From: a virus
Lineage: Duplodnaviria; Caudoviricetes
IMG/VR virus record: IMGVR_UViG_3300043391_000241
Location: 1 to 62,920 of that record
Length of the DNA: 62,920 nucleotides
Direction: 5' to 3' (one strand)
This document shows positions 8,331 to 33,520 of the stretch, piece after piece (position 1 is the first letter of the stretch; each line of letters starts with the position of its first letter). A program made the position numbers and the translations under genes. The notes under the pieces were generated by a model, which worked only from the letters and a program-made list of their open reading frames with translations, was not told the origin of the DNA and made no database searches.

Positions 8331-8693
8331 ATGAAGAAACAACAGGTGATGATCCCTGCAAAGATGCCTTCACATGATCCGCTGTATCATAGATACGAGG
8401 CATGGAAGATCCTTACTGCTGTGTGTAAGATCTCTGGCATTAGCATAACGCGCCTTGATTCAAAGGAGAGAAGCAAAGGTCTTACTGCGTGGCGCGACAT
8501 AGCCTACTGCGTTGCTCAGACATTCTTTCTCATGTCTCCAACAGAAGCTGCTAAGTCATTCAATGTTTCTCGTTCCACTATCATCAATAGTGGAACGAGA
8601 AGTGACAACCTAATCGAGTGTCAGTTGCACGCTGAAACGCAAACGTATGTCGATATGTTGTATCGGGTATACGATACGGCTATTGCGGGTTGA
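8331..8693 (+). CDS. DnaA domain IV-like HTH protein
   Basis: ILTAVCKISGISITRLDSKERSKGLTAWRDIAY...EAAKSFNVSRSTII follows the Bac_DnaA_C pattern. Confidence 0.6.
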   Translation: MKKQQVMIPAKMPSHDPLYHRYEAWKILTAVCKISGISITRLDSKERSKGLTAWRDIAYCVAQTFFLMSPTEAAKSFNVSRSTIINSGTRSDNLIECQLHAETQTYVDMLYRVYDTAIAG

Positions 8694-14600: not shown

Positions 14601-17600
14601 AAAGACTATTGAGCAAGATTGATCTAGCTTGTTCAATTCCTTCGGGCTTAATTAAATAAGTAGACCCGTTTCGTACTAGAAGATCTGATGACTGTAAGGA
14701 TTGTACAAGATGACCATATGTTAAAGCTCTAGTGAACTCTGGAATAACTTCCATCATGAAGTTGAGTTTAACCTCTTGAACTTCATCAGCACGGAGTTTA
14801 AGTCGATCTAAATTTGCAAGCTTAAATAGTTTCTTTGAAGCCCCAATGTTCTTCATGTATAGCGTATTATCACTACCAACATTCTGCGTAATTGTAGAAT
14901 ACACATTACCGAAGAAATTGGTAACATTGATAATGGCTTCAGAAAGTGAGAATTCTTTAGCATCTGAAGTCTCTGTAATATCGTTGAGGTTTCTATTTAC
15001 GGTCACTTTACTTTCAACAGAAGACTTAAATCCAGCAAGTAAATCAAAACTGTCTGCAATAGTTTTTGCTACCTTATTTTCTGTTGGCTTACTTTTATCT
15101 TTGTGTACAATAGAAATCTTTTCGAGAGGGTTTGAAGGACTAGGAAACTGTACGTCGTAGATTACTCTCGACTGTTCATCAAATTTAATCGCCTTATTTA
15201 CAGCCCCATTAAAATTTTGTGGTACTTTAATTGGAATTTTTGACTTTAGAATATGCGCGACAGTGAACGGATTATTGTCAAATACACCGACACGCACTCC
15301 GCCGTCTCTAAAGATATTATAACGAAGGCGCACTTCCTGTTCGTAGTTTCCAGTAAACGGATTAAACCAACTGAGCTTAGGCGTAGTCTTTGACTCCATA
15401 AGTTCTGTTGGAATACCGTACAACTCAACTACTTCACCTAAAGAAAGTGGTGGGTACTTAGCAAAAGTACGTACTGCCAGCATATTCGATAGTTCATTAT
15501 AGCTGATAGCATCACTATAGTTAGCGGGCATTCCAAATGCCGCACTCTTCTTAAAGCGCACGACTGCGCCTTCATCAGAAAGGTAATCAAGAACTTTAGG
15601 AATTTGTTCATTGGCAACTTGTACAGCAACGGACGCACCCCTTACACGTTCTTCATCCGCGAGCCTAAGCTTTTCAATACGTGCTCTCTCAGTTTCAGCT
15701 TTAGCTTCCGCCTTAGCTTGAGCTGCTAATGCTTTAGCGTCACTTGGAACTTTAGGAGCTTTGGGTTCCTTAGGAGCTTTGGGTTCCTTAGGAGCTTTGG
15801 GTTCCTTAGGAGCTTTGGGTTCCTTAGAAGCTTTAGGTTCCTTAGGAGCTTTAGGTTCCTTAGGAGCTTTAGCTTCTTCTACTGCAACTGTCCGCAGACG
15901 CTCTGCAACAGCAGAAGCTTGAAACGGATCAACGTCGTTCTGAGAGGATAGCCGCTCACGAATTCGTTTGTCAGCAGCTTCAAGAGTTAAGCCTCGTCTA
16001 ACGAGTGCCTGAACTGCTTCATTATATTCCTGCCGCGTAAACGAAAGCGAGTCATCGGGTTGGCTTTGGATCGAGTACTTAAGATTCTTATCCGCTTCTG
16101 ATTGAGGAAAGATTAAGTTGGGATCTAAGAGTGGGCTTTCGACAATAGCAATTGGAGATGAGATTTGATCAAGTAAGTCTGGAAGAGCTTGTTCAGAAGT
16201 CTCAAGATATGCCCCTTGAACTGCGGCACGAAACTCTTCTGGAGAAACGTCACGAAGTCTTTTGATAATCTCGTCGGCTTTACTATCAGCAAGAGGCTGA
16301 ATCTTGAGTTCGTTGATTGGGATGGAAAGAACATCGGGAGTAGCATCAGCATTGCCAGCCTCTACTTCTGCCATCGTAGTATTATCGTCACCGATTTTAA
16401 CGTATGCAATCGGCCCGTTCTCAGATTCGGCGACGCCAATAACTGTGCCAGAATAGAATCCTTTGCTAGTGCGGCCTGATGCAACTTGTCCAATAAGCGG
16501 ATTTACCTCTTCTTGTTCTGGTGCAACTTCTGCCGTATCAGTACGGAGACTCTGTGCAACAGAAGAAGTAGCGAAAGGCTTCTTGATTGCGCCTGTGAGA
16601 TTAGCATCTTCGATTGGCTTCCTTGATTCGGCAATACGATCAAGCACACTTTTGATATTGCTGCGAAGCTTATCAGCGGTGTCGGGCATCGAGTTGGCTG
16701 TCGGTGCAAGATCACGATTAGTCGCCAGTACGTGTGGATGCTCTGGATTTCCAGAAGATACTTTGACAATGTTGAGCTTACGGATATCTCCAACAGTCTG
16801 GTTTAGATAATCTGCAACAGCTCGCAGATCTTCAGATCCATAGAAATTATTGATGTCTTTCCCTGAAGTTTTATTGAACCATCCATCTGAGCCAATGCCA
16901 AAGATCGGATACCACTTGCCCACAGCAACGTCAGCTTTGCCGCCAGATCCAGTGCTGATGTAGAACGGCACACGGATGCCGTTGATAGACGCAAGCACTA
17001 ACGGTCTTCCAGAATAGTTCAGCACTCTAGCTTCACCAGACTGCTCTTCAAGAGGTCCGCCAGTTACTGTAGCGTACTTAGTAGTGTATGGCGCAGAATC
17101 AAAAGTAACTTTGTTGCCGTTGATGTCTGCCGCTTGTGCCAAGACAGATTCAAGTTGCTCAGGATTACTGAAAGATGCTGGCGTAGTTGGCGCAGCTGGT
17201 GCGGGTAGTGCTGGAGTTGCTGCGTTAGCCTGTGGCTTAATGCTTCCAGTTCCGATTAGTCCGACAGCATTTCTTGCTCCAGCACTGGCAGCGGCTGAAG
17301 TTTCTTCTGGCTTATTAGCCATTGCATTCAGCTGGTCTAGCGTAACAAACTCATCTGTGTTCGCAGCAGCGGCAGCAGGATTAGCCGCAGCTGGCTTTGC
17401 AGCAGCTGGAGCAGCAGCCTTCTGTTGCGGTGCAAAGATGCGTCTCTCAATTGCTTCAGCTGTAAGTGGACTGCCAGCGGCACGGAGATTCTCAGCGATC
17501 TGATTTACGACAGAAGCCTTTGCAGCATCTCGACTCTCAGCATCGATCTCTCCGCCTCTCGCGAATTTGCCTAATGTTGCGCGGAAAGCTCCAGCCGCTC

Positions 17601-19869
17601 CACCGAATACGCCGCCGTATGCCGCCGCCATTCCTGACTGCTTAATACGCTCAAGCATTGGGCGATCCTCATTAGTGAATCCTGTTTCAACAAACCCGTT
17701 AATGAATTCTTGAACGCCTTCTTCCACTGCTTCGTCAGCGAAGTTCTTTACAACACCCATCGTAGCAGATGTCTTGAACAAGTTCTTGTAACCAGCCTTA
17801 ATTGTATTGGCTACGACTTTGTTGAAAATCTGATTTGCTGCGTCAGACTCAAGTTCTCCAGCAGGGAAGTTAATTCCTTTGATCTTTGAGAGAACAGCTT
17901 TCATCTGGCGTGGAGTAGCTCCGCCCAACATGAAGTCTTCCAGACCTCCACGACCTAACATCGAGAAGCCGACAGTAGTCGCTCCAGTGATTGTTGCAGC
18001 AAGTATACCTCCAGCTAATGACCTATCGTGTTTTTCCTGATCAGTCATCTTCTGACCTTCGGGAGAGTCCTGAAGAGCGGAATAGATACTAGCGTAGGTA
18101 CTACCGCCTTCACGGGTAGCCGCAGGAACAAACATTGCTGAACGAATCAGGTACTTGTTTGCAGTAGTTTCTGCGTAGGCTTTGATAGCTGTAGCCGCGC
18201 TTTGTTCTATCGTCTGCGAAGCTGATGCCTTTACAAGGCCACTCGTAATGAGTCGAGCGGCGGCATCTTCCGCAGTTTCAGTTGCGGCTTTAGCCAGCGT
18301 GCCTCTTGCAATTCCAGTAATAATGCCCTTTGCAGTTAGGCGTGCGCCAGCATATGCTGCACCTCCAGCACCGCCCGCTGTCGTTAATAAAGCGGTTACT
18401 ACTCCGTCAGTCACAACTGGAGCAATCATTTCTCCGAACGTAGTAGTGACGCCGAAATCTTCTCCAAAGATATTTGCGAGTTGTCTACGCGAAGATCTTT
18501 TTCGCTGTGATTCTAGCAGTGCATCTATGCTTTCTTTGTTCTTTGCAACAGTTCCCACAGTATGATAGATATCAGCAAATCCATCATATATGGACGAGCC
18601 TATAGCTCCGACAATTTCATTCTTAAAGTAGCTATAGTCATGTGTATTTAAGAATTGATCTAAAATTTCAGACTTCTTTTTATTTTGTGCAAAGCCAGTC
18701 TGTACAGCATTTGTCCACTCGTCTGAAAGATATGTATCTTTAAATACTTTACCATACGTATCGAAAGACGAATCAAGTTTAGACTGGCGCATAACACCGA
18801 AACCAGCACGATCATCCTCTGTGAGATCTGGATTCGCCATAACGGAATCAAATACACTCTGCTTGATAAGGGCATCACGATGCAAGACGGGGGAACCGTA
18901 TCCAAAGTAATGGAGGTTCTTCGTAATCTCTTCGCCTTCACGGAACTTGAGTTGCCCAGAATCAGCGGCAATAGTTCCACCTAAGAACTCAAGAGCAGCA
19001 CGCTTATCAGCATTAGGAAGAGTAGCCATTTCTGGAATCTTTTCTTCCATCCTATCAATAAGCATCTTATAGCGACCATTAACATCGCTCATCGTATACG
19101 CCCGATTGTGATCGATATCGCCTAAAGTTTCAGATAGCTTGAGTGTATTCTTCTTAAAGTCTTCGTCGTTATTGAAGAGTGAGAAAGCCGCAGCAGTAGA
19201 CTTATCATAGTTCTCTTGCTGGAACTTAGGAACAGTAGAACCTGTAGGAATCGTATAGGCATCTTGAATAGCAAGAGCATCGTCGGCACTAAGAAATCCC
19301 ATTCGTTTGCCTTGCTGATAGGCATCATAAGGAGTCATATTCTTCGCAAGCTCCCCGCCAACATAACGTGTTTGTCCTACGGAATCTTTTACTTTAGCAA
19401 AAGGAATAGTACCTTCGCTGAGTAATTTCATCTGAACCTTGTCATAGTTGGCGTCAGTAGCCGCCATAGCTTTAGCTTCAAGCTCTGGCATTGCCGCCTG
19501 ATAAGTTTCGAGATCTGGTCCTTCGATCTTGCCAGCTTCAAGATTCTTTTTGGTAATGTAAAAACGACGCATGTCGTCGTAGCCAGTATCCTCTTCATTA
19601 GTATTACGGAAAACGTAATCGAACTTCCGTTCAAATGGAACTTCTGTTGGCGCAAATTGTTTATCGATATCCTCTTTGCTTAACCCCAAAACAGGATCAG
19701 ATAGTGAAGCATATCGCGCTTCGTCTACTGTCTTATTAATATCCCCATCAAGTTTGCCCTCTTTAAAGTAAGAGTCTTTGACGTATTCAGAATACTTATT
19801 ACGCTTTTCTAGTTCATCGCTAACATTGTTTGAAAGCGACCATTGGTCGATTGATTGAAGCTCAGGCAT
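8680..19869 (-). CDS. Giant (3729 aa) putative ejected internal virion / large polyvalent protein with a zincin-like metallopeptidase domain
   Basis: LLHEYVH motif with downstream EEFVA; Gly/Ala-rich hydrophobic N-terminal stretches; no Cys seen; last gene of a three-gene operon. Confidence 0.75.
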   Translation of the reverse strand: MPELQSIDQWSLSNNVSDELEKRNKYSEYVKDSYFKEGKLDGDINKTVDEARYASLSDPVLGLSKEDIDKQFAPTEVPFERKFDYVFRNTNEEDTGYDDMRRFYITKKNLEAGKIEGPDLETYQAAMPELEAKAMAATDANYDKVQMKLLSEGTIPFAKVKDSVGQTRYVGGELAKNMTPYDAYQQGKRMGFLSADDALAIQDAYTIPTGSTVPKFQQENYDKSTAAAFSLFNNDEDFKKNTLKLSETLGDIDHNRAYTMSDVNGRYKMLIDRMEEKIPEMATLPNADKRAALEFLGGTIAADSGQLKFREGEEITKNLHYFGYGSPVLHRDALIKQSVFDSVMANPDLTEDDRAGFGVMRQSKLDSSFDTYGKVFKDTYLSDEWTNAVQTGFAQNKKKSEILDQFLNTHDYSYFKNEIVGAIGSSIYDGFADIYHTVGTVAKNKESIDALLESQRKRSSRRQLANIFGEDFGVTTTFGEMIAPVVTDGVVTALLTTAGGAGGAAYAGARLTAKGIITGIARGTLAKAATETAEDAAARLITSGLVKASASQTIEQSAATAIKAYAETTANKYLIRSAMFVPAATREGGSTYASIYSALQDSPEGQKMTDQEKHDRSLAGGILAATITGATTVGFSMLGRGGLEDFMLGGATPRQMKAVLSKIKGINFPAGELESDAANQIFNKVVANTIKAGYKNLFKTSATMGVVKNFADEAVEEGVQEFINGFVETGFTNEDRPMLERIKQSGMAAAYGGVFGGAAGAFRATLGKFARGGEIDAESRDAAKASVVNQIAENLRAAGSPLTAEAIERRIFAPQQKAAAPAAAKPAAANPAAAAANTDEFVTLDQLNAMANKPEETSAAASAGARNAVGLIGTGSIKPQANAATPALPAPAAPTTPASFSNPEQLESVLAQAADINGNKVTFDSAPYTTKYATVTGGPLEEQSGEARVLNYSGRPLVLASINGIRVPFYISTGSGGKADVAVGKWYPIFGIGSDGWFNKTSGKDINNFYGSEDLRAVADYLNQTVGDIRKLNIVKVSSGNPEHPHVLATNRDLAPTANSMPDTADKLRSNIKSVLDRIAESRKPIEDANLTGAIKKPFATSSVAQSLRTDTAEVAPEQEEVNPLIGQVASGRTSKGFYSGTVIGVAESENGPIAYVKIGDDNTTMAEVEAGNADATPDVLSIPINELKIQPLADSKADEIIKRLRDVSPEEFRAAVQGAYLETSEQALPDLLDQISSPIAIVESPLLDPNLIFPQSEADKNLKYSIQSQPDDSLSFTRQEYNEAVQALVRRGLTLEAADKRIRERLSSQNDVDPFQASAVAERLRTVAVEEAKAPKEPKAPKEPKASKEPKAPKEPKAPKEPKAPKEPKAPKVPSDAKALAAQAKAEAKAETERARIEKLRLADEERVRGASVAVQVANEQIPKVLDYLSDEGAVVRFKKSAAFGMPANYSDAISYNELSNMLAVRTFAKYPPLSLGEVVELYGIPTELMESKTTPKLSWFNPFTGNYEQEVRLRYNIFRDGGVRVGVFDNNPFTVAHILKSKIPIKVPQNFNGAVNKAIKFDEQSRVIYDVQFPSPSNPLEKISIVHKDKSKPTENKVAKTIADSFDLLAGFKSSVESKVTVNRNLNDITETSDAKEFSLSEAIINVTNFFGNVYSTITQNVGSDNTLYMKNIGASKKLFKLANLDRLKLRADEVQEVKLNFMMEVIPEFTRALTYGHLVQSLQSSDLLVRNGSTYLIKPEGIEQARSILLNSLSVPSDAKLDQDLKVTSEEENKASFLYTFGFKSGEIKPQILVSTKKNAVRTLDPQWANKVVDQFLLNTINDNIAHADSNGNFPNVPSIVSRIRDRIKDRLTYDRESRDNAQADAYSRLVKSDLTENEFEAALKAVYGYDEATSMYLHTTNNAEELTKVNAGIIQDAYAILRRDREAARAIKRLAKQTAFKSNPELVDSMMPVDVFNSIAQWASPAGNRFSVVDSHTFRRQFLDNFKESNATARTVYDAFESSGVFQHQFKKQWDKGLQERMLRLGFNEAEIKFMRQESRAIKELISTGMDSGEAASVVVAARVGQRSYAAPSFISDKYRAFYRNKNNQEVERLSLESGNVESVISALNLIAKSGKDKNHKAIAKLLLKNPDIIRNIQFVITDINNNEAGNFIAFESGGGRVSVNLAGYYGNGVESVLLHEYVHAFTVDLLNRPDASLTPSQRTAKARLKGLYELTKAAYAEDSRLTGRRSVAFELATGNFEEFVATYFSSSDFQNSLKFLQDPKTNGKNFFARIYDAILSAFGIKPKSEFDTALAALTDFTEIGNSDMARTSRDYIDRGIQEAISVGVSRRIIPVVEKVSESQQQTRFANFGSISEDIDTSPEQKEVINILIDQAVRGLIPADVSVEVFNTQAEADAHGIFADRPEDAIVAALMKNDAGETYPAIFINRETMGKALLNQQSTISDPLNAKAILESLIGEELDHVAEFYAISTEELNGLADSFIDQDFYNIVDEYTANPSRRSQLREALQNDEDGEIKRQLIGEMLRMEKQKITRGYTTEEDIAFYESDPSLMRIMFRYFKGVFKRMYARYNLNKDNPEVAGMIHRMAVELEFMQSGGRNVDNHSPFDPRSPEANVEVLRRRYAATARDINPDTTDEEIEERLKGLAQTLELPIALFKNGNYQHASSTWRKLIKGDIDERVSRLKKNQQSFERATDAMGMSLTSKITKQIKEAYGSEANAPSDLLADAVGTTEFIQIDKELKQKFQSEYRTYVATVKQRVKNGEFNLETSAKLTSKEYLTSVHQRLVVQRVTAERARLRDEILRKQSAALEKISLTSPELAAALLEMRKTTDFWSRKVKEQYGLKGSLAVRFDAGMGIYLTRSYRTFSEEGYVDKVLTSKDEVFVKIRDEAMEYFRERYIKKEASIRVNASTKQSKIDGSKALTKQQAMIEAKDYLDDHPEIPAQLMVQYIKSYDPEYNRKRGVLAKGVTKSLIDNLRNKTNLDPRLRALLGEYSQDTEAVSNLLNTYSTVTTMVARQSFYNNLIAVGSSKPVLDPEGNQAIDEDGLPVEEGFLYTEEQLKELIRKDPMTQQRYANLRTGKIYVPDSKEIIPDDLGGTYDPTYNMYGPLELIEGMRKMYSPPVIDDNLTAAQFATKEVANVFNKLTGLSLGVKTLGSIGFYLRNIVSNSLFFAPSQGFVNFKSMALSMKLIGQVVADPNDIDAYRAELVALGILNNEMQSSLIKDLLKGRKTPESLKEEANSIMEKLQTVKQKAGVVYDKISEATAPLTDKLRAASGAVDGFYKMAYFHHELETFQKAKQHDLDAGNTDSYYAKLTDYEMKRLAADNVLATAQSYSEAPAIIQATVRSGGMFVAPFLRYKTEVPRIVFNTYKLASKERKSDNPVIRSRGQKRFWGMNSVLFVISGAASEAIRRWMGIGDDEDEALREGMPSYAKDNTYFYYRWFGGKLMSGDLTFINPYSLVADPILRSLEQISRGNYSKAMTSFTNALSSTYLDTQIFTGALLDVWNNQDRSTKQPIAYESDGIMQYAKKLGYIIDNSFNPRMIQKAWEAFNSAQGLAVDDKYAPLHILLDEFKPTRPREVNVTESATKFLRNKQKERNDLTGRINQLKTKRALSDDDVRGLARDWVETRVRIDEEVYKGLRGFLNIPKSGFGIREAAGLMKQQDMGYGDRRISLIFNGLSEKPVPNPAFIEKVLSLGDVGVQRMKTFNDELNRYTRYIKLNPQ
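15750..15873 (-). repeat. Coding 18-bp tandem repeat (KAPKEP)n
   Basis: TTTGGGTTCCTTAGGAGC repeated about six times. Confidence 0.92.
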
Positions 19870-23743: not shown

Positions 23744-24346
23744 ATGGACGAAGAACAAGATATGGATAATCCGCTCTTAACGAGAGCGTTGGAGATGTAC
23801 GCGAAGGACTACAAAATCAAAACCATTGCAAAAGAACTCAATGTCCATGCAGGAACGATTCGTCGTTGGTTCAAGAAGATCGGGATTCCCGCAAGGAAGA
23901 ACGGTTTCGCACAACCTAAAAAGGCTCTTCCAGTTGATCTTCCGCTTGATCCTCTTGCTGACGATTTGGAAGAAAACCTCGATAACTTCACGGATCAAGC
24001 TATACGAGTGGCAAAGCACGAAGCCCGAATAGCGGAAGACAGTGCCTTGATCGAGATCGCTGAAGCGCAGTCAACGCCAGCAGATAAGTACCAGCACTAC
24101 ATTGCTGCTGCTGGAATCAAGCTCCTACGCGACTCAATGAAGAACCTTAAAGGTCCAAAGACTGTAAGGGAACTCAGCGAGCTTGACCAGTTGATCCGAC
24201 GTAATTTGGGCCTGAACTCAAAGAGTGGCGGCGGTCAAAGTAAAATGCACATTGACATTTCAATTCTCAATAATACAAAAGCTGATCGTGGAGACGGCAG
24301 CGTCAACAAAATGAAACAGACCATCATCGATATTGAACCAGAATAA
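23744..24346 (+). CDS. N-terminal HTH protein, possible terminase small subunit
   Basis: IKTIAKELNVHAGTIRRW HTH; transcribed divergently from terL. Confidence 0.55.
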   Translation: MDEEQDMDNPLLTRALEMYAKDYKIKTIAKELNVHAGTIRRWFKKIGIPARKNGFAQPKKALPVDLPLDPLADDLEENLDNFTDQAIRVAKHEARIAEDSALIEIAEAQSTPADKYQHYIAAAGIKLLRDSMKNLKGPKTVRELSELDQLIRRNLGLNSKSGGGQSKMHIDISILNNTKADRGDGSVNKMKQTIIDIEPE

Positions 24347-24590
24347 TATGTTTAAGAACAAGATTGCAGAACTAAATGCTAGAGCCTTAGTTAGGAAAGA
24401 ACTTCCAGACGGAGATTTTACCTTTGAAACTAAAACCTTAGCGGGAATCTTTTACCGTGTGTTCCCGTACAATGGGCGCGAAGTTTGTTATCTCGAATCA
24501 CTGAGTAAAGGAACAACGATGTTTGCTCCTGAATCAGGAGACGGGATTCTTGTACGGGCAGATGTAATCAATTACGTTTCAGAGAACTGA
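24333..24590 (+). CDS. Hypothetical protein
   Basis: ORF in a tightly packed operon. Confidence 0.65.
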   Translation: MNQNNMFKNKIAELNARALVRKELPDGDFTFETKTLAGIFYRVFPYNGREVCYLESLSKGTTMFAPESGDGILVRADVINYVSEN

Positions 24591-24895
24591 TGTATCACAA
24601 ATTCAATCAAGAGAATAAGGATCTGATCCTAAAGCTTTCCGCAGAAGAGTTCAGCTGCACAGTAGATGGTATCCTCGCAGTTGACAGATCAAACCGTCCG
24701 TCAAATGCAAGACACGTTTCGATGGCAATCATGAAAGCATTGCTTAAATGTACTCTCACAGAAGTAGCTGCGGTATTTGGCAAGCACTACACTACGGTGA
24801 TACACGCGAAGAAGCGTGTTGATGAAGACAAGCAATTAAAGAACTCTGCTTTAGTCATCATTAGAAAATTTAAAGAGCAGATGACTGAAGAATGA
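24590..24895 (+). CDS. DnaA domain IV-like HTH protein
   Basis: ARHVSM...TLTEVAAVFGKHYTTVIHA, close to the DnaA signature RDHTTVxHA. Confidence 0.8.
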   Translation: MYHKFNQENKDLILKLSAEEFSCTVDGILAVDRSNRPSNARHVSMAIMKALLKCTLTEVAAVFGKHYTTVIHAKKRVDEDKQLKNSALVIIRKFKEQMTEE

Positions 24896-25371
24896 TCGTA
24901 GGCATCGACAACGGACTCGACGGCGGGCTGTGTGCGATCTCAAAGCACAACGGATCGATCATCGACAAGTTAGCGATGCCAACTTTCCAACGCGCTGGAA
25001 AGCGTGAAGTAGATTCAAAGGCAATCTACAACTGGATCTGCGACCTGAATACTGAATCCTTGATCGCGATTGAGGAACCGTTGAAACACGCGAAGTCCTC
25101 ACAGGCGATGCGTTCGATGGGCATTTCGTTCGGGAAGATAATGGGGATGTGCGAGACACGCGACCTCAAAGTCAAGCCGATTCAAGTGCTGGACTGGCAG
25201 AAGAAGATATTGGGCAAAGTTCCAAAGTCCCAAACAAAAATTTACGCCTTACGTAAGGCTAACGAACTCGCGCCCGATGAAGACTGGCGCAAGAACGAAC
25301 GATGCACTGTCCCACATGACGGAATCATTGACGCCTTTTTGATCGCAAGATACGTGCTAGAAAATTCTTGA
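24892..25371 (+). CDS. ruvC: RuvC-like Holliday junction resolvase
   Basis: IVGIDNG, IAIEE, WQKK and DGIIDAFLIA motifs. Confidence 0.85.
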   Translation: MIVGIDNGLDGGLCAISKHNGSIIDKLAMPTFQRAGKREVDSKAIYNWICDLNTESLIAIEEPLKHAKSSQAMRSMGISFGKIMGMCETRDLKVKPIQVLDWQKKILGKVPKSQTKIYALRKANELAPDEDWRKNERCTVPHDGIIDAFLIARYVLENS

Positions 25372-25419
25372 ACTTTTTTCTTGTGGTTCTGGCGCGAATG
25401 AAGTAAGAGCTTGTTCCGA

Positions 25420-26715
25420 ATGAAAACACTATTCCCGAAACAAAAAGAAGCCAAAGAGTTTTTCCAAGAACGCATCCGCTGTGGCGGCAGCACGCTCGAC
25501 AGTTCAAGCGTAGGCACTGGCAAGACTGTCGTAGCCGTTCATCTGGTGAAAGATCTTGATCGCCCGTTCGCCGTGATCTGCCCGAAAGCTGTTGTTCCCT
25601 CATGGGAGCGCGAATGCGAAGCGCACGGCGTGAAGCCATTGTTCGTCCTGAACTACGAGAAACTTCGCGGAGGCAAGACGAAGTGGATGACGAAGGCTGG
25701 TAAAAAGATCATGCGCTGGTCATTGCCAGAAGGCACTGTCGTACTCGTAGACGAGATCCACAAAGCCAAAGGACCGTACACCCTCAACGCGCAGCTTGTC
25801 GTGTCACTCGTACAACAGGGCTATCCCGTACACGGAATGTCTGCCACTGCCGCTGAAGATCCCACAGAGATGCGCCCGTTGGGCTACGCACTGGAATTGC
25901 ACTCGCTCAACAAGCCAGAAGGAAAGCTGAAGAGTTGGTTCTCATGGATGATGATGAACGGATGCTATCAGGATACATGGGGTAGCTGGAAGTTGAGCAA
26001 TAAGCAAAAGCTTGTCGATCTGAATAAACAGATCTACGGAGTCAGCGGACACAAGCTCACGCCAAAAGACTTTCCCGATTCCTTCCGCGAGAATCGTGTG
26101 TTCGTAGAACCGACGCAGTTCTCTGACTGGAAGAAGATCGATAAGGCTTACACCGATTTGGGCATCACGCCAGCAATCATCGAAGAGTTTATCGAGTTGG
26201 GCAGCGTATCAAATAGCGAACACGTACTTGTCAACATCCTCAAAGCTCGCCAGCTTGCCGAATCCTTTAAGGCTCCCGATCTGGCGGAGATCGCTGAAGA
26301 CTACGTCAATGGCGGCAACAGCGTTGTGATCTTTGTCAACTTCTCTGACACAGTGGACGCTCTCTGTACGAAGCTTCAATGCCGCAAGATCGATGGACGG
26401 CAAACAGCGGCAGAACGCCAGCTCGCCATTGACCGCTTTCAGGCAGACGATGACCACTGTCTCGTAGTCAACATCGCCGCAGGCGGTACGGGCTTGTCGT
26501 TGCACGACATCAACGGCAACCGTCCGCGCATCTCGCTGATCTCTCCGACGTTCAACGCGAAGGACTACCTGCAAGTGTTGGGCCGAATACACCGCAACGG
26601 AGCAAAGTCAGACGCGCTCCAGAAAGTGCTTGTCGCCGCTGGTTCCATCGAAGAGACGGTCATGAAAGCGATCAATGCAAAGACTGCCAATATGCAAGCA
26701 CTACACGGAGCATGA
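25420..26715 (+). CDS. SF2 DNA helicase
   Basis: GTGKT, DEIH, SAT, GTGLSL and QVLGRIHR motifs. Confidence 0.92.
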   Translation: MKTLFPKQKEAKEFFQERIRCGGSTLDSSSVGTGKTVVAVHLVKDLDRPFAVICPKAVVPSWERECEAHGVKPLFVLNYEKLRGGKTKWMTKAGKKIMRWSLPEGTVVLVDEIHKAKGPYTLNAQLVVSLVQQGYPVHGMSATAAEDPTEMRPLGYALELHSLNKPEGKLKSWFSWMMMNGCYQDTWGSWKLSNKQKLVDLNKQIYGVSGHKLTPKDFPDSFRENRVFVEPTQFSDWKKIDKAYTDLGITPAIIEEFIELGSVSNSEHVLVNILKARQLAESFKAPDLAEIAEDYVNGGNSVVIFVNFSDTVDALCTKLQCRKIDGRQTAAERQLAIDRFQADDDHCLVVNIAAGGTGLSLHDINGNRPRISLISPTFNAKDYLQVLGRIHRNGAKSDALQKVLVAAGSIEETVMKAINAKTANMQALHGA

Positions 26716-26806
26716 AAATAAAATTACGAATCATGAAAATTTTTCTTGCCATAGTTATTTTACGGCATAATGTCAGGGAAATTCTTAACACGTACTACAC
26801 AAACAA

Positions 26807-27019
26807 ATGAGCTTTGGAACTGGAGCAGGAAAAGGAGATTTGCCACGCGCCGTAAAGGGCGAAGCATTCCGTGCCGCATACGACTCAATCAAGAAGCCTG
26901 AATCGCTCGATGCGTTGCTGGCACAGTTTGACGAAGCGGTGAACAACAGAGACTCTACGCTTGCTGAAGAGCTGCACGAACAGATTAAGGCTCATCCGTA
27001 TTACAGAGGCAAGCCATGA
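26807..27019 (+). CDS. Hypothetical protein (GAGKGD-xPR N-terminus)
   Basis: First ORF after a promoter-like gap. Confidence 0.7.
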   Translation: MSFGTGAGKGDLPRAVKGEAFRAAYDSIKKPESLDALLAQFDEAVNNRDSTLAEELHEQIKAHPYYRGKP

Positions 27020-27207
27020 ACATAGACGAAGTACTCGCTAGCCCCGAATGGAAACAAGCTATTGAAGACTCTTTAGGGTTTGACCTATCAAAAGCCAAAC
27101 TTTCAGATAATTGGAAGAACCCTCTTATGGGAGTTTTACCAAAACACGATTCTTTTAGGGGTATTGAAATGGGTGAACCTATTACAGAGTTTAAATTTTA
27201 TCCTTAA
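27016..27207 (+). CDS. Hypothetical protein
   Basis: ATGA overlap with the upstream gene. Confidence 0.6.
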   Translation: MNIDEVLASPEWKQAIEDSLGFDLSKAKLSDNWKNPLMGVLPKHDSFRGIEMGEPITEFKFYP

Positions 27208-27216
27208 ATAACAAAA

Positions 27217-27291
27217 CAGCGATGGACTTGATCGAAGTCGCCCAGACCGATAAACTGGGAAACGTGCGTCGCTAACCGCACTCGCTGACCA
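27217..27291 (+). ncRNA. Non-canonical tRNA-like cloverleaf, GAT at the anticodon position, encoded 3' ACCA
   Basis: Stems CAGCGA/TCGCTG, GACTT/AAGTC, CCCAG/CTGGG and GTGCG/CGCAC; 75 nt; intergenic. Confidence 0.7.
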
Positions 27292-27307
27292 CTTTACCAA
27301 AAACACT

Positions 27308-27499
27308 ATGGAAAAGAAAACCAAATCGACAGTAAATGCAAAAGATGTGGAAGGCGAAAAGTTTATCGACCCATTAGGTACTGAGAAGTTCTTTCGTGGC
27401 TTCTACCGTACAGTTGATGATCTTGCTACGCCTCACACGGCATTGAGTGATATTACCGATTACAATGACGCATACTACACTGCTGACCCTCTCACTTAA
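27308..27499 (+). CDS. Hypothetical protein sharing its N-terminus with the gene at 27769
   Basis: MEKKTKSTVNA start. Confidence 0.55.
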   Translation: MEKKTKSTVNAKDVEGEKFIDPLGTEKFFRGFYRTVDDLATPHTALSDITDYNDAYYTADPLT

Positions 27500-27507
27500 A
27501 AAACACT

Positions 27508-27744
27508 ATGGATACTACAAATATACCGAAGACGCTACCAATTAAATGCTCCGCTGACGACTACGAAGCTATTATTGGTTGGATGTCTAAGCAACCACGA
27601 CATGAACTTGACGGTTGTGTAAACAGTACCGTTCGTTGGTCTTACTATATTTGCGACGAAGGGATATTCTCAACTATTAAAGTAACAGATAACGGAACCA
27701 AAGAAGTCTTCGCGGTCCCTTTAGGTGATCCTGAGAACTGGTAA
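27508..27744 (+). CDS. Hypothetical protein
   Basis: acactATG start context. Confidence 0.65.
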   Translation: MDTTNIPKTLPIKCSADDYEAIIGWMSKQPRHELDGCVNSTVRWSYYICDEGIFSTIKVTDNGTKEVFAVPLGDPENW

Positions 27745-27768
27745 CAATCAACTACAACCACAAACACT

Positions 27769-27951
27769 ATGGAAAAGAAAACCAAATCAACAGTAAACGC
27801 TGCTGGCAATTACACTAAGCCCACTATGCGTAAAGCCCTATTTGATAAAATCAAAGCAGGAACAAAAGGCGGCGACCCTAACGAGTGGTCAGCCCGCAAG
27901 GCACAGCTTTTGGCAACAGAGTACAAGAAAAAGGGAGGAGGCTACAAGTGA
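27769..27951 (+). CDS. DUF5872-like small basic protein, N-terminal half
   Basis: YTKPTMR...GTKGGDPNEWSARKAQLL...GGGY. Confidence 0.7.
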   Translation: MEKKTKSTVNAAGNYTKPTMRKALFDKIKAGTKGGDPNEWSARKAQLLATEYKKKGGGYK

Positions 27952-28190
27952 AAGACCCACAGAAGTCACTGAAGGATTGGGGCGACCAGAAATGGCGTAC
28001 CTCTGACGGCAAGCCAAGTGAAGGCAAGAAGCGGTACTTACCTGACAAAGCATGGGATAAGTTAAGCGCATCGGAGAAAGCTGCTACCAACAAAGCAAAG
28101 GCTGAAGGCAACGCCAAAGGCAAGCAGTTCGTAGCGCAGCCAAAAAGCATCGCTGAGAAGACCGCTAGACTACTAAGGAAAACAAAATGA
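27948..28190 (+). CDS. DUF5872-like small basic protein, C-terminal half
   Basis: QKSLKDWGDQKW...RYLPDKAW...KGKQFV; GTGA overlap with the upstream stop. Confidence 0.7.
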   Translation: MKDPQKSLKDWGDQKWRTSDGKPSEGKKRYLPDKAWDKLSASEKAATNKAKAEGNAKGKQFVAQPKSIAEKTARLLRKTK

Positions 28191-28299
28191 ACACAGTAAT
28201 AACCATTGCCGCGATCTGGATTTTTGTAGCCATTGCCGTTGCGTTCTTATGGCACGCAGCCGTTGGCGGATTTGACGACGATAACTACCCACCAAAAAT

Positions 28300-28962
28300 A
28301 TGAACACCCTAGAATTCAAACCATTCCCGAAAATGGCTCGCCTTCGACGCGAGTGCATCATCACTGAAAAAATCGACGGCACAAATGCCAGTATCTACAT
28401 TGGGCCTGATAATTATAAAGACCCTAAAATGATTGATGTCTTTCACAATACTGAAGGCGAAACTATTGGTTTATGGGCTGGCAGTCGCACTCGCTGGATT
28501 ACGCCGATGGACGATAACTTTGGCTTCGCACAATGGGTGTATGACAATTCGTCTGAGCTACTCAAGTTGGGCGAAGGCCACCACTTCGGAGAGTGGTGGG
28601 GCAGCGGCATCCAAAGGGGCTACGGATTCAAAAACGGCGAGCGGTTCTTTAGCTTGTTCAACGCTTCCCGTTGGGTTGAGCATGACCAGCCAACGTATGC
28701 AATCGAGCAGGACAATCCAAAGGCAGAACCAAAATTCACCGAACACGCGCCTGCTTGCTGCAAAGTGGTTCCTATTCTCTACAAAGGCATCTTCGATACG
28801 AAAGTAGCCGAAACGGAACTCTCTATCTTACGTCAGTTCGGAAGCGAAGCAGTGGATGGATTCATGAACCCTGAGGGCATTGTGGTGTACCACCAAGCTG
28901 CTCGCGTTGGATTTAAGGTAACCATTAAGGATGACGATAAGCCGAAAGGGCAAGCGCAATGA
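28300..28962 (+). CDS. ATP-dependent RNA ligase (Rnl2-like nucleotidyltransferase domain)
   Basis: Motif I TEKIDGTN, GSRTR, FGEWWG, EGIV and terminal FK. Confidence 0.85.
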   Translation: MNTLEFKPFPKMARLRRECIITEKIDGTNASIYIGPDNYKDPKMIDVFHNTEGETIGLWAGSRTRWITPMDDNFGFAQWVYDNSSELLKLGEGHHFGEWWGSGIQRGYGFKNGERFFSLFNASRWVEHDQPTYAIEQDNPKAEPKFTEHAPACCKVVPILYKGIFDTKVAETELSILRQFGSEAVDGFMNPEGIVVYHQAARVGFKVTIKDDDKPKGQAQ

Positions 28963-29588
28963 GAAACGTAAACCTTCCGAAAGCAAGAGTTTACATTCGC
29001 TGCGATGCGTTCGGTGGATCTGCTACTGAGTTTGAACCTGCATGGCTTGTAAGCGTTCGGGCAATCCGTAACCGCCCATTCGTGTTTCAGGTATGGGTAG
29101 ACAAATACGCCGCTTGCTACGATAAAATACCGCCGCAGTGCGTATATCACTACGAGCCAGACGGCGACCAGACAGACCTGCCTTTGCACAAAGTACAGAT
29201 GTGGGAATGCCTTAGCGGATCAGTAGAGTTGTGGCAGAAGTCTCAACTTACGGACGTGCCGATGCTTGTAAACTTAGGTGAAGGCAAGTACGCAAAAGGC
29301 CATTATTGGTTTACGCTGGACTTCCTGCCCGAAGGAAATTCTTTAGGCGTTATGGATGTGGGCGATTCGGAACTTCTTGAAGAACACAAAGAAGGAAACG
29401 TCGTAAAGCTCGACAACGGACAGATTGCAATCTACCCGAACAACCGCTTGAAGTGGATGCCCATTAGCCTAACGCCTAAAGAGGCAGGCACGCGCATTCC
29501 GAACTGGAGCGTTGCCACTAACGAACAGTGGGACGACTGGTGGCAGGACTCGACTGAATTCTTAGGCGATGCAAAATGGGCTTATTAA
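28959..29588 (+). CDS. Hypothetical Trp-rich phage protein
   Basis: 209-aa ORF with ATGA overlap. Confidence 0.75.
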   Translation: MRNVNLPKARVYIRCDAFGGSATEFEPAWLVSVRAIRNRPFVFQVWVDKYAACYDKIPPQCVYHYEPDGDQTDLPLHKVQMWECLSGSVELWQKSQLTDVPMLVNLGEGKYAKGHYWFTLDFLPEGNSLGVMDVGDSELLEEHKEGNVVKLDNGQIAIYPNNRLKWMPISLTPKEAGTRIPNWSVATNEQWDDWWQDSTEFLGDAKWAY

Positions 29589-29617
29589 AATCGCAACTAC
29601 AAATTAAACTCGCAACT

Positions 29618-30253
29618 ATGAACACACAATACAACGACCCCAAAGGCGCAGCAGGCGCACTGAAAACACCGTTAGGCTTAATCCCATCCTACGCAATGGA
29701 ACAAACTGCGTGGGTACACAAGTTAGGCGCAGAAAAATACGGACCGTACAACTGGCGCAAAACTGGCGTTTGTGCCAGCACCTACGTCAACGCCATCCTA
29801 CGACACCTTAACGCATGGCGTGACGGTGAAACACTTGATCCTGAATCTGGCATCAGTCATCTGGCACACGTTGCCTGTAGCTGTAACATCTTACTTGATG
29901 CAGGATTCTGTGGCACGTTGCAGGATGACCGTAACATTATGCCGCCTAATGCAGTGGACAAGCCTGTTCCTGAAATGGATAGGCCAACGCTACCTATCGA
30001 GAAGAAATATAGATTACTTAAAGTAGGAGAGCTTGTTCAGGATGGTGATGAGCATTGCTGTCCTGATTCTGGAGAATGGAAACCTACAGCTATGGGGGGT
30101 CTGCGCTATATTGGACCTTACTCGTTCCCACACCGCCGCAAAGTAGAAGCGAACGAGCCTGATCTTTGCACTTGCGGCAGGATCAAAGTTTACCACTTCA
30201 TGTTGGGCCTAATATGCGAAGACTGCGAAATCCAATGGCAAGACCCTTATTGA
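29618..30253 (+). CDS. dATP/dGTP diphosphohydrolase domain protein (DUF5664)
   Basis: GAEKYGPYNW, RHLNAW-DGE and DPESGISHLAH motifs. Confidence 0.85.
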   Translation: MNTQYNDPKGAAGALKTPLGLIPSYAMEQTAWVHKLGAEKYGPYNWRKTGVCASTYVNAILRHLNAWRDGETLDPESGISHLAHVACSCNILLDAGFCGTLQDDRNIMPPNAVDKPVPEMDRPTLPIEKKYRLLKVGELVQDGDEHCCPDSGEWKPTAMGGLRYIGPYSFPHRRKVEANEPDLCTCGRIKVYHFMLGLICEDCEIQWQDPY

Positions 30254-30290
30254 TTTTGCTACACACTAAAACCACTAATTTTACTAACCA

Positions 30291-30662
30291 ATGAGAATAC
30301 CAGATCCCATTAAGATTAAAGGCCATTACGGCACGCACACTTGTACAGCGATCCCGCTTTCGGATTCACTGTTCCAGATTAAGTTTGAGGGCGACAGCGT
30401 TATGGTCCGCTGCGGCGGGTTTGCTGACGACCCAACAGGCAAACAGGGCTTGAGCTACATTGATCCAGCAGGAGGACCGTTTATCGGCGTAGGCTCTATC
30501 GCACAGCAGTACCATAAGGACTTGCCGAACCGCCGAATTAAGCGGATTGTAAGCAACGAAGGCGCAACGCTTATCCATGTTGAGTCCGTTGACGACGATC
30601 TGGATGAGCCGTTGGGTGAAGCCTGTTCGCTTGCAGATCCCGACTGCGAAAGCTGCCAATGA
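30291..30662 (+). CDS. Hypothetical protein with C-terminal ACSLADPDCESCQ
   Basis: ORF; the tail resembles ribonucleotide reductase C-termini. Confidence 0.7.
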   Translation: MRIPDPIKIKGHYGTHTCTAIPLSDSLFQIKFEGDSVMVRCGGFADDPTGKQGLSYIDPAGGPFIGVGSIAQQYHKDLPNRRIKRIVSNEGATLIHVESVDDDLDEPLGEACSLADPDCESCQ

Positions 30663-30706
30663 AAATAATTTGAAATTTTTCTTGCGCTTTGCACGCGAAA
30701 GAACTA

Positions 30707-30803
30707 TGACTGATTCTGTTGGTGCTGTTGTGGGCTTGGCCCGTCCCACAACGTAAAGGTTCCATGCAGACTCCAAATTTGCAGAAAGTCAACGGGCCGT
30801 CAC
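30707..30803 (+). ncRNA. Candidate structured leader RNA with a pseudoknot
   Basis: GTTGTGGG/CCCACAAC hairpin whose loop GGCCCGT complements ACGGGCC at 30792. Confidence 0.5.
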
Positions 30804-30815
30804 TCTACTAAAACT

Positions 30816-33520
30816 ATGAAAATAACACTAGAACTCTGGTCAGACCAGACCTGCATTACGGAAGAAACCAACTCATCACTGTGGGTGATGAGTCTCAACG
30901 GGAAAGATTTCCCGCCAAATAAAGACTCACTAATGACATTGGAAACTGCCCACAAAATTGTGGGTAAATTACTTGAAATTGAAGAACTAGCATCAGACGA
31001 CACATGAACAAAGAAAACGCAAAAGATTACTTGCATCTAGTACAAGCATTAGCAGATGGAAAGACAATCCAATTTAAAACAACTAGTGGTAATTGGGAAG
31101 ATCAAGTAAATTTACATTTTTCCCTTGACCCAGAAGACTACCGCATCAAACCAGAACCGCGCACATGGAAGGTATGGGCGCATAAAAACGACAATGACAT
31201 TGTGGCATCTATGCCTACTGCTTGGAATACGGATAATACATGGAAACGCATCACTGTGCAGGAGGTGCTGGAATGATGGACGGGGTATATCTTGATGAGC
31301 ATGGCAACAAGTTCGTCCTAAAAAACGATAGGTGGATCGTAGAATGCTGCGACGAACCGAGTGGACTTGTAGGAGGCATCTGCGATTTTTGCGGAGGAGA
31401 AGTACAGCCAGATCTAGAAGGAGTTTTGACTTACAAACAACCAAACCAAAATGACTGAGACACCAGAAACAGAGTATTACGACCGAGAATTATCTCATTC
31501 TCCTATTGCTCGCGAGCTTAAAATTCAACGCGATGCCGCCATTGCCGAACGCGACGACGCCAGACGCGAGGCGGAACGATGGAGGGACTGCTTCAAGACT
31601 GGGATGAGTCTGCAACCCAAGGCTCCGAGTCAGATATTTCCTTGGGAGAACAACCAAAATGACTGACACACGAATATGGACAAACTACGAAAACCAACCA
31701 AAATGAATGACACACCAGAAACAGAGGCAAACGATCAAGCGTGGGCGTACAATATGCAATACGATACGTTTAGTTCGTTAATGGATAATCCGCTGCCGTG
31801 GGATGAGTTTGCCCGAAAGCTAGAACGCGAACGCGATGAGGCAATTCGATCCTGCCATATCTGGCAGAAGGGCCATGCTGAACTTGGGGAAGAGCGAGAT
31901 AGGTGGATTATTTTTTATCATGCCGCCATTGCCGAACGCAATGAGGCACGGGAGCAGCGCGACGAGCTGGCGAAAGCCTTAGAAGAATGCAAAGAAGACT
32001 CAATCGAACTATTGGGGGAACGCTCTTGGTGGAAAGATGAGCCGCGATCTGATTACAAGAAACGCTATAAAGATATTGAGAACAACATCGCCAGAGCTGA
32101 TGCTGCATTGGCAGCAGTAAACCAACCAACCAACCAAAATGACTAACGAAACAATCCAACTGATCATTGCCGCAATCGTAGTAACTGTAATGGCGTTAAT
32201 CTGGAGTAAATATATATTCTAAAAAGATCAAAAAATGACTAACGAACAAATCAACAAAGCAATAGCTAAAGCTGTAGGATGGGAATCTGAAACGAGCGGC
32301 CCATCGTGGTACGAGTACGAAACCAAAATGCCAAACTATGCAGGATGCCTCAACGCCATGCATGAGGCTATTGAAACTATAAGCGTTGGTGAAAAATCGA
32401 CCTACATCATACATCTTATGGATATATGTCGCGAACATCCAATTGGGTGTGTACCAGATTGGACGCGAGATAAGCAATCATTAGCTAGATTAGTTCAAGC
32501 CACCGCTCGCCAGCGAGCAGAAGCCTTCCTGCGGACACTTGGGAAATGGGAGGAGGAAGCATGAGAATCAGCACTGAAGCACTTATTGAGGCACTACGCA
32601 TTTTGGCTAACGAAATCCAAAGCGAAGATGGAGTCACCAGCGCAGCTATTGAAGAAGCAGCGGATCGGATGGAGGAACTATGCAGCGAACTGCTATTTCA
32701 AAAACAACTCGCAGAGAAATACGTCGAAGCAGGGAAGATCTGCGCGAAGATTTACATAGCGCGGAACATTTCGCTTTCAGAAAAATGCGTTGTTTCAGCA
32801 CTTGCTGAAATAGACAAACTTTACCGAACACATCACAATGAAAACTGAACTAGAAATCTGGAAATCAAGAGCGCAAGCACATGAGGAAAACTACTTACGG
32901 ATGCTCAAGCGCATTGATGAAGTTGTTGCAGAACGCGATGAGGCAGTTCGTAGTTGCCATATTTGGCAGAAGGGACACTCCGATATTGTTACCGAACGTG
33001 ACTTGTGGCGACAAGAAGCAGATCGTTGGCGCATCATGTACATCCAGTACGAAGAATTGCTGGAAGGACAAATACAAGAAGCTGTGGCACGCCTTAACAA
33101 AGTTTGGGCAGGTCTTGATAAGCTCAAGAAGAAGGTACAAGATGACCTACGCGAAGACTAAGTTGCAGTGGTGCAGACGCTGCCAGCAGGATAAGCCCGT
33201 ACGCGAATTCTACGAAAGCCACCGCACACGTTGTATGCGCTGTATGTCAGAATGCGCCAAAGAACGCCTATCCGATCCTGTAAAACGGCAGCAGCAACGT
33301 GATCGCTGCAAGAAGAACTACTACGAAAAGAAAGCAAATGACTGAAGACATTGTAATTACAACGCTCAAGAACTCGTACTTCAAACGCCTGAAACTTTCC
33401 TTAAAAAAGTTTGACAAGAAGCTGGAAGACGAATTAGATCTCATCGAAGCCGCTATTAGAGATCGGCAACGACAACTCTCAGAAGACGAACAAACACAAA
33501 ACTATGGCACAAACACCTGA
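30816..33520 (+). other. Cluster of ~11 small hypothetical CDSs (starts 30816, 31004, ~31273, 31451, 31676, 32235, ~32561, 32838, 33142, ~33338), including coiled-coil ERDEA-repeat proteins and a CxxC..CxxC Zn-finger protein at 33142..33345
   Basis: Head-to-tail ORFs with overlapping start/stop codons. Confidence 0.7.

Follow-up and report, generated by a model that had tools for sequence, protein, structure and literature searches.

The window analyzed here is a complete virus record of 62,920 bp (IMG/VR record IMGVR_UViG_3300043391_000241; Duplodnaviria, Caudoviricetes), in which all genes between positions 23744 and 39528 lie on the + strand. These genes form a replication module that encodes a helix-turn-helix protein, a RuvC-like resolvase, a helicase, an RNA-ligase-family enzyme, a dATP/dGTP diphosphohydrolase-like protein, a PD-(D/E)XK nuclease, a DNA polymerase, and a primase-like protein. 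Between the helicase and the RNA-ligase-family enzyme, at 27217-27291 (+), sits a 75-nucleotide (nt) element that forms a cloverleaf of four stems and whose sequence is as described in the initial annotation of this DNA. The element fills the 100-nt gap between the open reading frame (ORF) at 27016-27207 and that at 27308-27499. Its parts, with the evidence for each, are as follows.

27217-27291 (+): the whole tRNA-shaped RNA element, 75 nt (minimum-energy fold, covariance model R1, covariation)
27217-27222 (+): acceptor-like stem, 6 bp, 5′ strand, pairing with 27282-27287 (paired in 100% of alignment cells)
27223-27224 (+): 2-nt linker, its first T invariant and at the position of U8 in tRNA (invariant columns)
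27225-27239 (+): D-like arm, 5-bp stem and 5-nt loop GATCG, without GG (two pairs changed on both sides)
27241-27259 (+): anticodon-like arm, 5-bp stem (each of the 5 pairs altered on both sides in at least one variant)
27246-27254 (+): anticodon-like loop, 9 nt, ACCGATAAA (near-invariant among variants)
27260-27263 (+): variable-region-like linker, 4 nt, AAAC, or AGAC in one clade (alignment columns)
27264-27281 (+): T-like arm, 5-bp stem and 8-nt loop TCGCTAAC (four of 5 pairs changed on both sides)
27282-27287 (+): acceptor-like stem, 3′ strand (covariation count)
27288-27291 (+): single-stranded tail ACCA, with ACC conserved and the last base variable (37 variants)

The initial annotation had described four stems in tRNA order with noncanonical loops, and both the sequence and its predicted folding bear this out. 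The RNAfold minimum-energy structure and the centroid structure were each exactly the cloverleaf, at −26.9 kcal/mol and with 76% of the ensemble. The fold of the + strand had a z score of −3.18, and none of 200 shuffled sequences was equally stable; the reverse strand gave a z score of −1.58, with 19 of 200 shuffles as good. The linkers at the junctions of the cloverleaf (2, 1, 4, and 0 nt) are tRNA-like, and the acceptor-type helix, stacked on the T-type arm and followed by a single-stranded R-C-C tail, has the shape of an RNase P-type substrate. Covariance model R1 gave the element 105.7 bits and no other place in the window more than 9.7 bits.

Homologues of the element were collected in several ways. 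Of 90 loci anchored on the helicase and ligase genes, 25 contained one according to nhmmer, and the covariance model found the same 25. A loop-based pattern scan of viral contigs returned 90 matching stretches; among the 80 of these that were listed, 26 were matched by the model, the rest being chance. All 31 loci from a metagenome scan were matched by the model. Loop-based scans presuppose the loop, and a second scan therefore used the 5′ half alone as its anchor and yielded 36 stretches, 34 true and 2 due to chance. The single pattern hit in bacterial genomes, in an Oscillospiraceae metagenome-assembled genome, was not matched by the model and was rejected as chance. Left out as chance before counting were loci L217, L228, L229, L230, and L178 and the weak rows of the viral-contig pattern scan (≤23.6 bits). 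What remained were 37 different variants, found in 39 distinct sequence contexts, all of them in uncultured viral material from fresh water; among 50,697 GenBank phage records, no cultured phage had a match to the element. Each of the five genomes that were searched carried exactly one copy. Extended folds, judged by eye, kept the cloverleaf in most contexts; an automatic flag accepted 18 of the 39 and was too strict, as it rejected 7-bp acceptor stems and 4-bp D stems.

In the alignment of the 37 variants, 98.1% of 771 cells held standard pairs, and both-side changes were found at 13 of the 21 pairs, in 104 cells. None of 500 column shuffles reached the observed values for pairing or covariation, and when partners were slid by 1 to 3 columns, pairing fell to 25 to 38%. 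The covarying pairs were spread over every helix: 2 of 6 in the acceptor-like stem, 2 of 5 in the D-like stem, 5 of 5 in the anticodon-like stem, and 4 of 5 in the T-like stem. In the acceptor-like stem, A-U was exchanged for U-A in 11 variants and C-G for U-A in 1, with 3 G-U cells; the D-like stem showed a compensatory change from GACT/AGTC to GGAT/ATCC. The variants are 71, 74, 75, or 76 nt long, which rules out a conserved reading frame. The four-stem cloverleaf with its ACC tail is thus kept by selection on the + strand. The initial annotation had proposed a maintained tRNA-shaped structure rather than a decaying tRNA gene and had staked the proposal on compensatory changes among relatives; those changes are present in all four stems, alongside a near-invariant loop, and the proposal stands.

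Several observations place this selection on the + strand. Genes on that strand flank the element on both sides, its fold is the better of the two, and it alone yields the tRNA-like linkers together with a 3′ single-stranded tail. In a count over 29 variants, G-U cells on the + strand outnumbered A-C cells by 7 to 4, a difference that is weak alone. From these we conclude that the element is an RNA element on the + strand, with a DNA-level role retaining a small share.

The nine-base loop ACCGAUAAA is nearly invariant (32 of 37 variants), although the neighboring proteins differ by 20 to 35%. Besides the 32 variants with ACCGATAAA, two had ACTGATAAA, one had ACAGATAAA, and in two the loop was rebuilt. 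At the third loop base, which corresponds to U33 of tRNA, C was found in 32 of the 37, T in 2, and A in 1. Even with scans for which the loop was no requirement, it was ACCGATAAA or had a single change at the third base in all but 2 variants. The loop carries G-A-U-A-A, that is, the anticodon and 3′ side of the tRNA-Ile(GAU) loop, with an extra A flanking each side. A phage tRNA-Ile(gat) at locus L052 has the loop CTGATAC, in which C32 and G-A-U-A agree with the seven bases at the center of the element's loop. Elsewhere in the molecule, the T at the U8 position was invariant, the D loop varied (GACCG, GATCA, GAACG) and had GG in no variant, and the T loop followed the pattern T-NNNN-A-A-Y, with 9 nt in L153. 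The tail read ACCA in 26 variants, ACCC in 6, ACCT in 4, and ATTT in 1. Of the encoded ACCA end noted in the initial annotation, the ACC part is therefore well conserved (36 of 37), and the final A is encoded only in the 26.

These features set the element apart from tRNA. ARAGORN called no tRNAs in the window and none in 30 loci carrying or neighboring the element, and a search of the whole window against Rfam 15 gave no match at the gathering score; in the 101 nt around the element, nothing in Rfam matched at an E value of ≤10. The best match of the Rfam tRNA model (RF00005) in this genome lay elsewhere than the element and scored 10.9 bits, against a cutoff of 29, and the same model found no tRNA in four related genomes bearing the element. 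The acceptor stem has 6 bp in most variants, so that the acceptor/T stack comes to 11 bp and not the 12 bp of tRNA; a seventh pair, U-A, is possible only in a minority with a T before the stem (the L015 type and L029). The elbow features of tRNA are absent, the D loop having no G18-G19 and the T loop being 8 to 9 nt long without T-psi-C-R-A. The anticodon-like loop departs from tRNA as well, with 9 nt in place of 7 and mostly C at the position of U33, where tRNA has U33 and a purine at 37. The element is not a canonical tRNA, and scoring by tRNA finders, a check suggested by the initial annotation, gave rejection by both ARAGORN and RF00005.

The initial annotation had also pointed to an RNA ligase about 1 kb downstream, and the gene indeed starts 1,008 nt after the element.

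28300-28962 (+): minimal RNA-ligase-family nucleotidyltransferase, 220 amino acids, with a KIDG motif (PF09414, E = 2.4e-12; phrog_548)

The protein had no PDB sequence match at an E value of ≤1. A dedicated link between ligase and element was not supported by comparison with relatives. A ligase gene lay 18 to 1260 nt downstream of the element in 21 of the 39 contexts, no ligase was present within at least 2 kb downstream in 11, and 7 contexts were too short to tell. Whole-record searches found the ligase in the complete genomes G000, G005, and G006, all of which carry the element; the same search gave no ligase homologue in the complete, terminally repeated genomes G003 and G011 and none in G007 (97% complete by estimate), each of which also carries the element. 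Because complete genomes G003 and G011 have the element without a ligase, we regard the ligase as an optional cassette and not as an obligatory partner. The absence of a polynucleotide kinase, remarked on in the initial annotation, was confirmed to the extent that no kinase/phosphatase match above threshold was found among the 51 window ORFs scanned against Pfam and/or PHROGs. No CCA-adding enzyme or synthetase scored above threshold in the same scans, in which many ORFs matched nothing. Genuine tRNA genes were found near the ligase in 7 of 60 more distant ligase loci, with a tRNA-Leu immediately after the ligase in L084 and L092; the ligase family thus does occur in the company of tRNA genes.

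The genes that flank the element vary on both sides while the element itself stays. Upstream ORFs fall into six or more unrelated clusters and downstream ORFs into over ten, and the element stands where a conserved module on its upstream side gives way to a region that varies greatly downstream. In 25 of the 39 contexts, an upstream ORF of 45 amino acids or more ends 5 to 10 nt ahead of the element, and the next ORF typically starts 10 to 120 nt after it. In a scan of 24000-31000 for promoters and terminators, nothing was found on the + strand at the element, and inspection of the sequence around it revealed no iterons and no AT-rich tract. Its closest neighbors in the window are as follows.

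26807-27019 (+): 70-amino-acid protein with an N-terminal GAGKGDLPR motif, cluster c2, present in most contexts and the most constant upstream neighbor
27016-27207 (+): 63-amino-acid ORF, its stop codon 9 nt before the element (ORF list, clustering)
27308-27499 (+): 63-amino-acid ORF, starting 16 nt after the element, within a window-specific insertion (repeat, relatives)

The GAGKGDLPR protein had 66 homologues, and in some loci unrelated small ORFs replace its gene. It matched no Pfam or PHROG family above threshold. A hit to the anticodon-binding domain of cysteinyl-tRNA synthetase (CysRS) was rejected as noise, with an E value of 0.035 and 14.7 bits against a cutoff of 23, in a variable helical part of the protein. 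An AlphaFold model built from 46 sequences had a mean predicted local distance difference test (pLDDT) score of 66 and a disordered N terminus.

Our preferred reading, held tentatively, is that the element constitutes a gene in its own right, present in a single copy, and that its product is a small tRNA-shaped RNA that is excised from the surrounding message and acts in trans as a non-decoding mimic of a tRNA-Ile-like loop. RNase P reads an acceptor-type helix, a T arm, and a CC tail, pairing with the two Cs of the tail; trimming of tRNA 3′ ends stalls at CC, and the CCA-adding enzyme restores the terminal A. The features kept in the element, namely, the acceptor/T helix and the single-stranded A-C-C, match the needs of these maturation enzymes, suggesting excision from the operon transcript in the manner of a tRNA. 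The RNA would be transcribed within the polycistronic message of the rightward replication-gene operon, host RNase P would cut on the 5′ side of the acceptor-like stem, and a 3′ cleavage would be followed by trimming back to the conserved ACC. A CCA-adding enzyme would then complete the tail to ACCA, and this proposed restoration of the last A would account for the conservation of ACC while the fourth base drifts.

The near-invariant loop and the covariation of the D-like and anticodon-like stems exceed what a cleavage signal needs, which suggests that the excised RNA acts through its loop. That the GAU anticodon and its 3′ side are kept while U33 is usually absent and the loop is two bases too long fits a non-decoding mimic. 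The mature RNA would not decode; its loop would be presented in trans to some protein that recognizes anticodon loops of the tRNA-Ile type. In this scheme the RNA would most likely serve as bait or as a competing substrate for a host anticodon-loop nuclease; the partner might instead be a synthetase or a modification enzyme. Where present, the optional ligase could reseal the cut RNA, and the element would work without it. Put in its most specific form, the idea is that the element is the first example of a non-decoding phage tRNA decoy, matured like a tRNA with a nontemplated A, that retains nothing of tRNA-Ile but its anticodon-loop identity, soaks up or jams a host anticodon-loop nuclease or another enzyme reading tRNA-Ile, and so spares the host's tRNAs during infection. 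In this strong form we consider it unlikely.

A number of observations weigh against a trans-acting mimic. The elbow bases are missing from the D and T loops, which makes recognition by RNase P, the CCA-adding enzyme, and a synthetase uncertain. In L221 the anticodon-like loop is a 5-nt CCAAT and in L226 the hairpin is apparently inverted, while the other three arms and the ACCA tail are kept; shape alone may therefore suffice. In 6 of the 39 contexts the upstream ORF enters the element by 37 nt (12 codons) and stops at the TAA of the loop, so that ribosomes must unfold the element on the mRNA. These ORFs encode 94 amino acids in L010, L027, L153, L187, and relatives and 76 amino acids in L185. 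Support for tRNA ancestry was lacking in a global alignment of the element with the 24 ARAGORN tRNAs of the fetched loci: the best score was 45, and the best scores of shuffled sequences averaged 35, with a maximum of 47. Twenty public runs contain this stretch, one of them RNA, and the contigs of the RNA run over 26500-28500 cover only parts of 27787-28245 and none of the element; contigs cannot show RNA ends, and this coverage speaks neither for nor against a discrete transcript. No Shine-Dalgarno sequence was found at the 42 gene starts checked in the window, where the leaders are A/C-rich, and the host is possibly a member of the Bacteroidota, judged only from this absence.

The main rival is a pure processing signal, an explanation that we find doubtful but must take seriously. 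The element would then be cis-acting punctuation, a tRNA-shaped mark at which RNase P (or RNase Z or E) cuts the operon transcript, and the excised piece would have no function of its own; a cut between the upstream small gene and the variable cassette would set mRNA ends and half-lives. Its position wedged between cistrons, with an upstream stop codon so often just before it, would suit such a signal, as would the border it marks between conserved and variable genes and the retention of the acceptor stem, T arm, and ACC tail even in the two loop-rebuilt variants. A cleavage signal needs no near-invariant 9-nt loop, however, and no covariation in all five anticodon-like pairs or in the D-like stem. 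The other junctions of the operon also do without such a structure, the model finding one copy per genome. Rather less probable is a protein-binding operator or a translational control element that acts on its neighbors, for example through coupling of upstream-ORF termination to expression of the downstream cassette or through binding of the GAGKGDLPR protein. That stop codon is indeed very close and in six contexts falls inside the conserved loop, the GAGKGDLPR gene is the commonest upstream neighbor, and with no Shine-Dalgarno sequences a leader structure could matter for initiation. Against this, the neighbors on both sides vary, the next ORF has its start codon beyond the structure, unpaired in most extended folds, and the small protein offers little, its model being poor and its sole family hint far below threshold.

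We think it very unlikely that the element is an aberrant but working tRNA-Ile(GAU), charged and decoding AUC and AUU, with odd loops that resist a host tRNA-cutting defense. The order of the cloverleaf, the tRNA-like linkers, the invariant U8-like base, the A followed by a CC tail, and the G-A-U-A-A of the loop all speak for a tRNA, and it is the sole tRNA-like gene in these genomes; phage tRNAs that escape nucleases through anticodon-loop changes have already been proposed (PMC10264068). Decoding is hard to reconcile with a 9-nt loop in which 33 of 35 loop-bearing variants have C or A at the U33 position, with the missing G18-G19 and T-psi-C loop and the 11-bp helix, and with the rejection by ARAGORN and the Rfam tRNA model. 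It strikes us as highly improbable that the element acts at the level of DNA, as a single-strand cruciform or cloverleaf that helps to initiate or prime replication or takes part in recombination. Such an element would sit fittingly among genes for helicase, nuclease, polymerase, and primase; covariation also occurs in the stems of DNA hairpins, and the arm combinations look reshuffled between lineages, with one variant carrying an inverted hairpin. Yet the cumulative GC-skew minimum is at about 22 to 24 kb and not at the element (27.2 kb), G-U pairs are tolerated on the + strand, and the tRNA-like linkers and conserved single-stranded ACC tail have no obvious role in DNA, in a region with neither iterons nor an AT-rich tract. 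We give equally little credence to the suggestion of the initial annotation that the element is a dedicated substrate or regulator of the neighboring RNA ligase. The proximity of the two in just over half of the contexts and the genuine tRNA genes adjoining distant ligase homologues are what such a role would lead one to look for, but the 11 ligase-free contexts and the ligase-free genomes G003 and G011, in a search that was positive in G000, G005, and G006, argue against it.

We compared the element with known tRNA-like RNAs. Like canonical and phage tRNAs (RF00005), it has four stems in order, linkers of 2, 1, 4, and 0 nt, a U at the U8 position, a length of about 75 nt, an A-C-C(-A) tail, and the G-A-U-A-A of a tRNA-Ile(GAU)-type anticodon loop; it differs from them in that its acceptor stem has 6 bp, its D loop 5 nt and no GG, its T loop 8 nt and no T-psi-C, and its anticodon-like loop 9 nt and no U33. 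The mascRNA of MALAT1, the C4 antisense RNA of P1/P7, and the T4 “species 1 and 2” RNAs are tRNA-like and are freed by tRNA-processing enzymes. They share with the element an acceptor-like stem and a CCA-type tail inside a longer transcript, but the Rfam search on the element returned none of them at an E value of ≤10. C4 acts by pairing of its loop with a target. A C4-type antisense regulator was considered and rejected, since sites complementary to the loop (≤2 mismatches) were not enriched in the window (20 versus 14.0 ± 3.4 expected) and none was conserved beside the element. YrlA, a bacterial Y RNA, keeps a canonical T loop and has a Ro-binding helix in place of the anticodon arm. The element has neither, it had no Rfam hit, and no Ro/Rsr gene was found. 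Bacterial Y RNAs with a tRNA-like domain are reported to be noncoding and tRNA mimicking, to occur in bacteria and some phages, and to be tied to RNA repair loci (PMC4201824).

Recent work casts phage tRNA genes in a new light, as weapons against tRNA-cutting bacterial defenses. In two reports, phage tRNAs are proposed or shown to counter such defenses (PMC10264068, PMC11555353), and in a third, HepS is an antiphage anticodon nuclease that cuts tRNA-Ile(GAT) (PMC13043305). Like the tRNAs of the first two reports, the element is phage encoded, with an anticodon loop as its business end and an arms race as its setting; the tRNAs described there are canonical, able to decode, and replace cut host tRNAs, whereas the element has no decoding features and would be a bait or inhibitor. 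A 2023 survey used covariation to predict 8,495 unnamed structured-RNA candidates, putative tRNA-like ones among them, in the intergenic regions of IMG/VR; its data source and its type of evidence are those used here (PMC10690425). The five tRNA-like candidates described in that text overlap ARAGORN predictions, and the element does not; the element may nevertheless be among the 8,495 (PMC10690425). Our literature searches found no description of the element and none of a non-decoding phage tRNA decoy. The element is most likely a new tRNA-like RNA of putative function, presumably either tRNA derived or tRNA mimicking.

If the element is indeed a trans-acting, non-decoding mimic, it would represent a different tactic, with mimicry in place of replacement, and would point to a tRNA-Ile-directed activity in freshwater bacteria that has not yet been described. 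If it is punctuation only, it would be a bacterial-virus counterpart of organelle tRNA punctuation and of mascRNA-type processing. In either case, the analysis yields a new and well-supported covariance model, built on 37 variants with 13 covarying pairs, of a family missed by tRNA finders and Rfam.

Two other structured elements were seen among the fetched loci. One is a second tRNA-shaped family, at L043:6015-6094, L035:~5894-5964, and L034:6134-6214, found in related phages 2 kb downstream of the ligase gene, with genuine tRNA genes nearby. Its 7-bp acceptor stem shows compensatory and G-U changes across the three copies; the D arm has no GG, the anticodon-like loop is short and odd, and the 8-nt T loop reads TATCGA(A/G)T. 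This family was not called by ARAGORN, and the two copies scanned against Rfam (L043 and L034) had no gathering-score match. If the element were a decoy, members of this sister family would be decoys for other tRNAs. The other structure, at L049:3909-3984, lies directly upstream of a 55%-identical ligase gene and is a three-way structure with an 11-bp closing stem and two inner hairpins, followed by ACCA (−34.2 kcal/mol, z = −3.5, 0 of 200 shuffles). It had no relative among the fetched loci.

The region just downstream of the element has a history of its own in this genome. A 35-nt direct repeat with 94% identity (27296-27330 and 27757-27791) flanks an insertion and spans the leader and first codons (MEKKTKST...) of the ORFs at 27308-27499 and 27769-27951. 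In relatives, the counterpart of ORF 27769-27951 directly follows the element; the window has two extra ORFs (27308-27744) in between. From the repeat and the gene order of relatives, the window seems to have gained these two ORFs at the junction by duplication or recombination. In one subgroup (L015, L016, L017, L195, L203, L206, and L208), the element is followed at a distance of about 45 nt, ahead of the next gene, by a conserved GC-rich hairpin (TTGTGGGC...GTCCCACAA) that could be terminator-like or a second structured element.

Farther along, a 38-amino-acid ORF at 28187-28303 (+), with one predicted membrane helix and an acidic DDDNYPPK tail, overlaps the ligase start from upstream and is conserved even where a genome lacks the ligase. 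The protein encoded at 29576-30253 (+) has the dATP/dGTP diphosphohydrolase N-terminal domain (PF18909, E = 9e-29), of a family known to occur in phages with base-modified DNA of their own making. The DNA polymerase is less than 30% identical to that of any cultured phage. A 3,729-amino-acid ORF at 8680-19869 (−) adjoins the terminase and had no PHROG match at an E value of ≤1e-5; it might encode a giant virion protein. Finally, five genes at the left end (upstream of 1416, 2730, 3672, 4958, and 6411) share a TGAAAYA..CAAC-like word about 15 to 25 nt before the ATG, possibly a promoter or leader motif.

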